Translations under genes and position numbers: made by a program | From: a virus | Taxonomy: Duplodnaviria; Heunggongvirae; Uroviricota; Caudoviricetes | Reading direction: 5' to 3' (one strand) | Length of the DNA stretch: 19,030 nt | Virus record (IMG/VR): IMGVR_UViG_3300001373_000069 | Notes under the pieces: generated by a model | What the model saw: only the letters and a program-made list of their open reading frames with translations | What the model was told of the DNA's origin: nothing | The model's database searches: none | In this document: one piece after another, positions 15,100 to 16,465 of the stretch | Layout of the letters: every line of letters begins with the position of its first letter | Position numbering within the stretch: the first letter of the stretch is position 1

Positions 15100-15393
15100 C
15101 TAAGACATTAATAAAGATCTATCGGCATTCCATTTTTGCTGAAACTCACCGGGATTATCGAGATATGCAGATAACTTCTCAATAAGTTTCTTTTTGTTTT
15201 CAATAGCAAGAGTTTGACATCCTACCTTAACAAGGTAACCATAGTCTAATGCTTCGATGCGAATATTGTACAATGTACTATTAGAAGCTCCTAAAGAACC
15301 CGCAGCTAAACCTGTACTATAGATATCCGAAATACCTAAATAAGGACCATCGACAGTTTCACATTGATTATTTTGATCGAAAAAATCACTCAT
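15100..15393 (-). CDS. Hypothetical protein (97 aa)
   Basis: Likely start MSDFF at 15393, overlapping the DnaB-like stop by 8 nt; contains IRIEALDYGYLVKVGCQT.AIE. Confidence 0.68.
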   Translation of the reverse strand: MSDFFDQNNQCETVDGPYLGISDIYSTGLAAGSLGASNSTLYNIRIEALDYGYLVKVGCQTLAIENKKKLIEKLSAYLDNPGEFQQKWNADRSLLMS

Positions 15394-16465
15394 CTTCTTC
15401 GTTGTTATCCATACAACCATAGTATGGAGATTTATTTGGAGCCAGTATGTACACCTTAGTGTCATCAAAGCTCATAATATCCTTTTCATCCTGAAGCTCT
15501 ATCATAAAACCATTCCCAGCTAGGAATAGTATGATATTGGATATCAGGTCGGACCCTTCGGTGTTCCTGATAATAGTCCATGTACGTAAAGTATTCATTC
15601 CTGACTTACCTCCAACATACAAATTCTTATTATTAATATATAATGGGTCACGCTCCGCAATTGGGTTATATATCTCAATACCACGGTGACAGTTAGCATA
15701 CTTACCCAAATGACTTTGTTGGGGTTCAGTATCACGATTACCTCTAACTATCGGTATATGAGGGGGTGCTACAACCGTTACAGTAGCAAGTGTTTTGGAC
15801 ACAACTTGTTGTATCAGTTTGTCCATCTTTTCATCCAGAGCTTTACCAGTCAACTTCATAAATCCGTCATCCTCATCCATAAGATGTTCCGTAGAGTCAA
15901 TTACCACCATAAAGTGTCCTTTATCTTCGTGCTTCTCATAAAAATCTGAATACTCGGTTAATATCAAATTGTGGATATCAGTTGGTTTCTTACCACCTGA
16001 AATTATCTCTAATTGTTCTCCAAGTACAGCATCGAAAAAACCACCAGCTTGATCTAGTGCCCCAAGAGCTTGTTCACTTTGATCGATATCAAAGAGTCGG
16101 CTGGGTTTACTATTCAAGGTGGGAATATCTAAATGTACTCCATGAACTAACTTACCATACAAACAAATAAGTTGCTGAAAGCACTTCAATTCGTTACTTG
16201 ATAAGTTAAAATACATAATCTTTAATGGAGGACGTTCATCCTCAGGTAGAATATACCATTGGATTAGGGGGCCTAACACATAGTTTTGGTTTACAAATGA
16301 TGATGTACCAGAACCATGATTACCTATTATTGCAGTATACAATCCTTTGTTGATATTACCTACCAACCTATTCAACTTTGGAGTTAAAGGCATTTTAAAG
16401 CCGGTATCCCTATGTTGAAGATCGTAATGCATTTTAGAAATTACATCAGAAAATGAATACTTCAT
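15386..16465 (-). CDS. DnaB-like RecA-fold protein with degenerate catalytic motifs
   Basis: Layout of phage DnaB: N-terminal G..MP...L...V..I.KG.Y..I.G..GSG, then YFNL, VVID, PQ..HL, YNP and R...IIRN.EG. Key residues are substituted (see findings). Confidence 0.72.

Follow-up and report, generated by a model that had tools for sequence, protein, structure and literature searches.

We analysed a stretch of 19,030 nucleotides of viral DNA (Caudoviricetes; IMG/VR record IMGVR_UViG_3300001373_000069), hereafter the window, which carries a phage replication module with genes for a family A DNA polymerase, a DnaQ-type exonuclease, RecT, a primase, an Mre11-like nuclease and an ATP-dependent ligase. 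It also encodes GroEL, a resolvase, ribonucleotide reductase, dUTPase and a dNMP kinase. Within this module, an open reading frame (ORF) at 15386–16465 on the minus strand encodes a protein of 359 residues, P0001, which a family profile, a structure model and its superposition on known proteins place in the DnaB family as a probable pseudo-helicase. An earlier sequence-only reading had described it as a DnaB-like protein that appears catalytically dead at several independent sites.

The gene has a full-length frame with no internal stops, and it overlaps its neighbours at both ends. Its start codon overlaps the stop codon of the upstream gene (16462–16998) in an ATGA, and its 3′ end overlaps by 8 nt the ATG (15393–15391) of a small ORF downstream, which is also present in conserved form in the related loci L001 and L002; taking the TTG at 15468 as the start of that ORF would lengthen this second overlap to 83 nt. 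Residues 48–55 read GNHGSGTS, with Thr54 (codon ACA, 16306–16304) at the position of the Walker A lysine. Residues 85–90 read YFNLSS, with Ser89 encoded by TCA (16201–16199), and residues 300–302 (15568–15560) read RNT. When the ORF and its translation were rechecked, the sequence-only reading proved correct on the frame, on these three sites and on both overlaps. A sequencing error at codon 54 can be excluded because 13 other rows of a 71-row alignment of relatives also lack Lys or Arg there; P0004, a near-duplicate of P0001, lacks them as well. Contigs from four sequencing runs cover parts of the gene and pieces from three of the runs span codon 54; none of the 40 contig differences listed (29 more are unlisted) falls at 16304–16306. 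The runs found in this search gave small shares only (0.12 or less), with no RNA run among the matches listed.

By its own sequence P0001 is an orphan, and the designation DnaB-like rests on a family profile and on the fold. Searched alone, it had no match among Pfam families (E ≤ 10), PHROGs (E ≤ 1) or NCBIfam models, and phmmer comparison with PDB sequences returned chance-level matches only (E at least 0.086). Nine related proteins were found in a collection of 5.8 billion, and an exhaustive search gave 83 representatives, 15 of them at E ≤ 1e-30, with relatives reaching down to 24% identity. The alignment used throughout (A2) holds 71 near-full-length rows and leaves out P0004 and 19 short or fragmentary rows; the excluded rows follow the same residue pattern.

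The A2 profile matched DnaB chains at E 3.5e-12. When aligned to Geobacillus DnaB, it placed the P-loop of the family opposite RPSVGKTAF, its YF..L strand opposite FSLEM and its H4 region opposite RESGSIEQDAD, while the K-N-x-x-G strand of the family aligned with KNRNG of the members that match Pfam DnaB_C. The equivalence of the P0001 sites with DnaB motifs is not a matter of chance, because the profile alignments match motif by motif. Pfam DnaB_C (PF03796) was matched by 21 of the 71 rows and phrog_19, annotated as DnaB-like replicative helicase, by 19. In a subclade of 16 rows (A6) the SMER and SQxNR motifs are still canonical; the profile of this subclade matched DnaB at 4e-13.

An AlphaFold2 model of P0001 built on the 71 rows had a predicted local distance difference test score (pLDDT) of 95.1 and a predicted template modelling score of 0.93; an earlier model from nine rows had a pLDDT of 67.6. 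Residues 1–330 of the model superposed on residues 178–469 of Escherichia coli DnaB with Z 27.6 and a root mean square deviation of 2.7–2.9 Å over 279–280 residues, which bears out the DnaB/RecA fold claimed earlier. Other structural matches were the ATPase domain of SPP1 G40P (Z 27.0), T7 gp4 (about 23.8), T4 gp41 (22.1), and RadA and Rad51 paralogs (18.5–19.6, with Rad51 paralog complexes at about 18.6), and the top viral match was a helicase of a crAss-like virus (E 1.3e-16). Identity to cellular DnaB in the structural alignments was 9–14%. A closer affinity to the Rad51/RadA branch was also considered and rejected: Z there is 18.5–19.6 against 27.6 for DnaB, and the profile matches are to DnaB.

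According to the model, P0001 consists of the DnaB linker helix, the RecA-like C-terminal (motor) domain and about 30 extra C-terminal residues. The N-terminal helical domain by which DnaB binds primase is absent, in that model residue 1 lies opposite DnaB residues 178–180 and the upstream gene ends at the start codon. A two-copy complex prediction made with A2 scored 0.00 and gave no answer, so that it counts neither way on whether the protein forms oligomers.

Residues lost and residues kept

Mapped onto the gene (all positions on the minus strand), the parts of the protein follow the order seen in DnaB. The N-terminal helix of the model (residues 5–17, 16415–16453) superposes on the DnaB linker-helix region, the alignment starting at DnaB residues 178–180; in DnaB, this helix docks on the adjacent subunit. 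A degenerate P-loop follows at residues 48–57 (16295–16324), with Gly48, Gly53 and Thr/Ser55 kept around Thr54 (16304–16306). In the alignment, Ser89 (16199–16201) stands in the column of the DnaB H1a catalytic Glu (FSLEM), Gln98 (16172–16174) in the column of the Arg of VMRMLC in Geobacillus DnaB, and the Walker B aspartate, Asp190 (15896–15898), is kept. The H3 Gln (SQLxR) is absent, with Pro234 in a column that is Gln in 17 of the 52 rows outside the clade described below. Residues 241–254 (15704–15745) are the aligned counterpart of the DnaB H4 or central-channel loop (RESG), where the RESG..DAD motif is not found: His occupies column 252, and His260 takes the place of the last Asp of DAD, with Gly254 kept. 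Residues 292–302 (15560–15592) comprise Thr292, which stands in for the first Arg of the N-R-F-R of the family, Arg294, and the K-N-R counterpart, whose full K-N-R-x-G strand reads R300-N301-T302-E303-G304. Gly317 (15515–15517) lies in a column that is Glu in most other rows. Structural alignments end at model residues 318–334, those to DnaB and T7 gp4 at 320–330, and the C-terminal extension (residues 330–359, 15389–15478), with an SPYY motif and an acidic NNEEDE end, lies beyond the DnaB superposition.

A maximum likelihood tree, built after removing the P-loop and four other trait columns, placed 19 rows including P0001 on one side of a branch with an ultrafast bootstrap (UFBoot) support of 99 and a Shimodaira–Hasegawa-like approximate likelihood ratio (SH-aLRT) support of 98, and the same split was present in 98% of bootstrap trees. 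Counts below compare these 19 clade representatives with the other 52 rows of A2. Lys occupies column 54 in 2 of the 19 rows and 49 of the 52, and Lys or Arg in 5/19 against 52/52. Four further conserved charges are lost in the clade: Lys/Arg at column 98 (2/19 against 51/52), Glu/Asp at column 252, which is the Glu of the DnaB RESG (0/19 against 40/52), Arg at column 292, the first Arg of N-R-F-R (0/19 against 41/52), and Glu at column 317 (0/19 against 46/52). Arg294 is present in 18/19 clade rows and 51/52 others, and the Walker B Asp at column 190 in 19/19 and 45/52.

Column 54 of the clade holds eight residue types (T, V, L, I, S or F in 14 rows, R in three and K in two), around which Gly53, Thr/Ser55 and Ser56 stay conserved. 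The two clade rows with a Walker A Lys and the three with Arg have likewise lost the acid at column 252 as well as Arg292 and Glu317, and the tree needs one to four changes for the lysine-less state. The alignment and tree suggest, as the likely course of events, that the clade first lost its charged residues in concert, at its base, and that the lysine afterwards drifted to R, T, V, L, I, S or F. As judged from these rows, the inactivation is a clade event and is larger than first noticed. Searches for more members and loci added little: alignment A5 found only 11 proteins, locus searches with the clade alignment A3 and with the protein P0009 found none, and alignment A4 gave the loci L016–L018.

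The claim of several independent dead sites therefore has to be divided, because two of the sites turn out to be family-wide. Glu is found at the H1a column in 0/19 clade rows and 18/52 others; it is absent from 34/52 of these other, lysine-bearing rows, and both Glu and Asp are absent from 30/52. The K-N-R Arg (column 302) is found in 0/19 and 3/52. Loss of the H1a Glu and of the K-N-R Arg is not diagnostic of inactivity because most lysine-bearing relatives lack them too, and the family probably uses another Arg than that of K-N-R as arginine finger. Loss of the Walker A Lys stands. Together with the losses at columns 98, 252, 292 and 317 it means that the canonical NTPase (nucleoside triphosphatase) centre has been dismantled in the clade, and orthologs share the substitution, 14 of the 19 clade rows having neither Lys nor Arg at column 54.

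The gene is clearly maintained by purifying selection. The ratio of nonsynonymous to synonymous differences per site (pN/pS) between the window and two orthologs of 81% identity was 0.10–0.17 (pN 0.09–0.13; pS 0.76–0.89, which is saturated). A ratio this far below one, together with the intact frame, supports the earlier suggestion that the full-length ORF is being kept. The clade retains the P-loop glycines, Thr/Ser55, Lys/Arg300, Asn301 and Gly304, and Glu323 in 19/19 rows. Among 12 non-redundant lysine-less rows, column entropy is on average lowest in the P-loop (0.93) and in the strand 293–306 (1.04), which makes these the most conserved regions, and a central-loop motif, [RK]xx[KR][DE]TEPxYxxLG, is conserved as well. 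The C-terminal tail is acidic: over the last 20 residues the clade has a mean net charge of −4.5, with 15/19 at −3 or below, against −0.27 in the remaining rows, with 8/52 at −3 or below. As a comparison, the acidic C-terminal tails of T7 gp4 are described as binding basic patches on the polymerase (PMC12593628).

Gene order and helicases in related phages

On the same strand as the pseudo-helicase gene, and upstream of it, lie the family A DNA polymerase gene (17752–19029, cut by the window end), a gene for a 251-residue protein with no family match (16995–17750) and the gene for a DnaQ/Rv2179c-like 3′–5′ exonuclease of 178 residues (16462–16998; Pfam 3.8e-13, phrog_2259 2.1e-56). A RecT-like annealing protein, recognised by homology, is encoded two genes downstream (14394–15038, minus strand), followed further on by a DnaG/TOPRIM-type primase of 373 residues (11549–12670, minus strand; phrog_12622 2.9e-26). 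Genes for a Holliday-junction resolvase, the ligase and the Mre11-like nuclease are also near. The primase belongs to the same PHROG (phrog_239) as primase–helicase fusions, and it matches the primases beside lysine-bearing members of the family at E 1e-43 (L016) and 2e-41 (L017).

The loci of these two lysine-bearing members have the order SF1 (superfamily 1) helicase, PolA, further genes, SF2 (superfamily 2) helicase (Helicase_C), a gene of about 250 codons, the DnaB-family gene, a RecT-like gene, a gene of about 300 codons without known function and the primase gene. The window and L003 share the order PolA, the gene of about 250 codons, the DnaB-family gene, RecT, two genes without known function and primase, with two items added to it in the window, namely the exonuclease gene before the DnaB-family gene and the small ORF after it. 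Comparison of the flanking genes of the window with those of L016 and L017 gave E values of 4e-9 and 5e-8 for the protein of about 250 residues, 1e-25 for RecT and 1e-43 for the primase. Because the flanking genes are homologous and in the same order, gene order makes the window ORF the positional ortholog of the gene known in the crAss block as DnaB family phage replicative helicase, and not an extra paralog. According to the survey text, the replication block of crAss-like phages includes DnaB helicase, DnaG primase, SNF2 helicase and an AAA+ ATPase as four highly conserved genes (PMC7886860), and the DnaB family helicase of the block is also listed in figure legends of two further papers (PMC11502894; PMC13558084).

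A homolog of the 251-residue protein is encoded directly upstream of the DnaB-family gene in L001, L002, L003, L016 and L017 (for example L016:7253-7996, L017:7066-7932 and L003:1796-2566), thus in phages with and without the lysine. In L018 a 205-residue gene takes that place, without a blastp match to the 251-residue protein. For the latter, neither PHROGs, Pfam and NCBIfam nor PDB sequences and the ESM Atlas yielded a match; it may be a partner, loader or organiser of the helicase.

The window itself has no structural genes, and its origin in a large crAss-like phage is inferred from a complete relative, G001 (IMG/VR). This genome has 175,292 bp, direct terminal repeats and a CheckV completeness of 100; its ortholog is 81% identical to P0001, and the gene order around it matches that of the window. 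It carries matches to Pfam Crass_capsid (4.5e-23) and crAss_MUZ (6.5e-31). A tblastn search of 50,697 phage records for cultured relatives gave one weak partial match, with 25% identity over 43% of the query; by this search, no close relative exists among the cultured phages in GenBank.

We then took an inventory of helicases. It covers the relatives G001–G005 (the genomes behind L002, L003, L016, L017 and L018) rather than the window's own genome. The A2 and A6 profiles found one copy of the family each in G001, G002 (80% complete) and G004. Pfam DnaB_C had no matches in G001 and G002, and AAA_25 none above the cut-off there. Of the 93 ORFs in G001 with at least 170 residues, 91 were scanned against Pfam, and no further helicase beyond an SF1 enzyme was seen among them; the two omitted ORFs, of 476 and 1567 residues, are covered by six-frame searches of the G001 record. 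These results answer one question raised by the sequence-only reading, as no intact DnaB was found elsewhere in either lysine-less relative, complete G001 or G002. Nor do they support its suggestion that P0001 is one subunit of a hetero-hexamer, since G001 and G002 have one copy each and no DnaB_C match, and the gene is a positional ortholog.

The SF2 helicase of crAss-like phages (Helicase_C) was present in 3/3 lysine-bearing records (G003, G004 and G005) versus 0/2 lysine-less records (G001 and G002). The SF1 helicase of G001 is Dda-like (AAA_30 2.1e-22; phrog_325 7.9e-65). SF1 helicases matching AAA_30 were also found in G003 and G004, and G002 gave weak traces only.

Possible roles of the protein

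Because the canonical NTPase centre is gone, translocation driven by NTP hydrolysis is unlikely, and P0001 most likely cannot couple the two. By analogy with DnaB, it keeps the elements that form the ring and line its channel. The explanation we favour, with about even confidence, is that P0001 is a non-catalytic scaffold or hub of the replisome. It would assemble as a DnaB-like oligomer on single-stranded DNA and serve as a passive hub linking the DnaG-type primase, the upstream partner of about 250 residues and the family A polymerase, the last perhaps tethered, as in T7 gp4, by the acidic tail. Opening of the duplex would then fall to the Dda-like SF1 helicase, to strand displacement by the polymerase or to both. 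Among the roles listed in the sequence-only reading, scaffold or loader thus agrees best with the data, and hetero-hexamer subunit does not.

A more specific form of this idea is tentative and, we think, doubtful as a whole. In it, a lineage of large crAss-like phages has a replisome of its own, with family A polymerase, DnaG-type primase and ligase but without a hexameric motor; the DnaB ring is a passive, hydrolysis-independent sliding hub on the lagging strand, moved by the polymerase through the acidic tails, and the duplex is opened by the Dda-like SF1 helicase or by RecT-driven recombination-dependent replication. Such a rewiring of the replisome would have left its mark on this lineage in the lost NTPase centre and the missing SF2 helicase.

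Several observations weigh against a purely passive hub. The degenerate P-loop and the strand 293–306 are the most conserved parts of the protein, and Thr/Ser55, Asp190 and Arg294 are kept, which would not readily be expected of a mere vestige; some ligand may still be bound at the P-loop, for example a nucleotide acting as assembly glue. With 30 of the 52 lysine-bearing relatives lacking Glu or Asp at H1a, catalysis in this family may be unorthodox in general. Columns 98, 252, 292 and 317 may lie away from the nucleotide site. Moreover, the comparison of helicase content sets two lysine-less against three lysine-bearing records, of which only two are complete, and, the inventory being from relatives only, a second helicase may lie elsewhere in the window's own genome.

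P0001 could also still be an active NTP-driven helicase with a non-canonical site, in which phosphate is contacted, for example, by Arg294 and Arg/Lys300 in trans or by basic residues gained in the clade (Lys94, Arg241, Lys/Arg244 and Arg261). In its favour, conservation extends to the P-loop glycines, Thr/Ser55, Asp190 and Arg294 and is highest, among the lysine-less rows, in the P-loop; several basic positions are enriched in these rows, and the gene is the only one of the DnaB family in complete G001. Even so, we regard this as unlikely: the column that should hold the lysine takes T, V, L, I, S, F, R and K in one clade, as under relaxed constraint, the four further conserved charged residues were lost jointly, and none of the gained basic positions is invariant. 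A further point against an active enzyme is that DnaB and T7 gp4 lose hydrolysis when their Walker A Lys is replaced. Alternatively, P0001 could act with the RecT-like protein as a recombination mediator in recombination-dependent replication, like Rad51 paralogs with degenerate ATPase sites. RecT is encoded two genes downstream, the Mre11-like nuclease, ligase and Holliday-junction resolvase are encoded nearby, and Rad51 paralog complexes and RadA are structural neighbours of the model (Z 18.5–19.6). However, the DnaB score of 27.6 is clearly above these, the linker helix and the synteny with primase are features of a replisome, and a RecT-like gene also lies beside the lysine-bearing members in L016 and L017, so that the adjacency is ancestral and unlinked to the loss. 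On balance we consider a mediator role quite unlikely.

A role directed at the host, in which P0001 binds or caps host DnaB so as to recruit or poison it, or is a decoy for helicase-sensing defence, has precedent in that phage proteins capturing host DnaB are known (lambda P), and it would fit with the finding of no active hexameric helicase of the phage's own in the relatives G001 and G002. Yet identity to cellular DnaB is only 9–14% in structural alignments, and the gene occupies the ancestral helicase position, overlapping both neighbours in a replication operon with no defence context; we find this very unlikely. Finally, loss of catalytic residues is what a decaying enzyme gene would show, but a functionless pseudogene or annotation artefact is contradicted by the pN/pS of 0.10–0.17 and is hard to square with an intact full-length frame, relatives conserved to 24% identity, a confident model and the neighbour overlaps. 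We give that explanation almost no credence.

Comparison with known systems places the non-catalytic hub reading in context. The DnaB family helicase of crAss-like phages, as presented in the survey text (PMC7886860), resembles P0001 in profile, fold and position near the genes for the protein of about 250 residues, RecT-like protein and primase. The P0001 clade differs from it in lacking the Walker A Lys and the four charged residues and in having acidic C-terminal tails, and the SF2 ('SNF2') helicase of the crAss block was not found in 2/2 lysine-less records. That text reports differential loss of the DnaB gene in some crAss groups, and its passages on this loss do not mention retained inactivated copies (PMC7886860). 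With the bacterial DnaB C-terminal domain and SPP1 G40P (7t22, 9oa1 and 3bh0), P0001 shares the fold with linker helix over about 280 residues (Z 27.0–27.6) and the order Walker A, H1a, Walker B, H4, K-N-x-x-G; unlike them, it lacks the N-terminal primase-binding domain, the Lys, the Glu, the H3 Gln and the K-N-R Arg, is 9–13% identical and has an extra acidic tail of 30 residues. The T7 gp4 helicase domain is likewise a superfamily 4 RecA-like domain without the DnaB N-domain (Z about 23.8) and has an acidic C-tail, but its site is catalytically intact, the primase is a separate gene in the window, and contact of the P0001 tail with polymerase is suggested by analogy only. Mycobacteriophage DnaB relatives that consist of the RecA core (Wildcat gp80), as described in the source consulted, indicate that this core alone suffices for the fold, as in P0001; these proteins are active helicases and ATPases, and the P0001 clade lacks the residues concerned (PMC4523182). 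The Rad51 paralog complexes BCDX2 and CX3 share with P0001 a RecA fold and a degenerate P-loop kept by selection (Z about 18.6).

A literature search found no description of an inactivated DnaB-family helicase in crAss-like phages; the supplementary tables of crAss surveys, including Yutin et al. 2021, were outside this search. What distinguishes this case is that the dead protein is both the sole copy of its family and the positional ortholog of the replicative helicase in a recognised phage order, with graded intermediates among its relatives. This series may record the order in which an NTPase site was dismantled, from canonical motifs through Glu-less, Lys-bearing proteins and Arg to no basic residue.

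In bacterial and phage replisomes, the hexameric replicative helicase is considered indispensable both as motor and as organising hub. Here evolution appears to have split the two roles: in a phage otherwise rich in replication genes, the sole DnaB-family gene no longer encodes the motor residues, and its conservation is still as strong as that of an enzyme. If borne out, this would provide a natural system for studying hub function without a motor and alternative drivers of the fork. The inactivated sole helicase raises the issue of what opens the DNA at the replication fork. For annotation, it indicates that the marker 'DnaB' in crAss-like genomes does not always denote an active helicase.

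Other genes of the window and of its complete relative

The exonuclease gene upstream of the pseudo-helicase gene (16462–16998) had no tblastn counterpart in L001, L002, L003 or all of complete G001, where the genes that flank its site in the window abut directly. From this distribution, it looks like a recent insertion into the operon. Between RecT and primase, adjacent genes for proteins of 233 (12975–13676, minus strand) and 218 residues (13693–14349, minus strand) match no known family; each of them is similar to the same pair of L003 genes and to one 317-residue gene of L017, which suggests a duplicated pair. A role in single-strand binding would be a guess from their position. At the window edge, a gene at 2–718 (minus strand) encodes a signal-peptide-like N-terminus and a CBM9-like carbohydrate-binding domain (Pfam 1e-07). 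It has no counterpart in G001, and may be a phage gene peculiar to this lineage or else host DNA at the flank.

G001 has two giant ORFs of 3705 and 2723 residues without Pfam match (L014:3922-15036 and L015:2054-10222) and rIIA- and rIIB-like genes (L011:7575-10133 and L011:11038-12231). The window encodes a GroEL-type chaperonin at 7201–8808 (minus strand; phrog_5725 1.3e-103), and G001 also has a gene for a Cpn10 co-chaperonin (L008:14916-15521).

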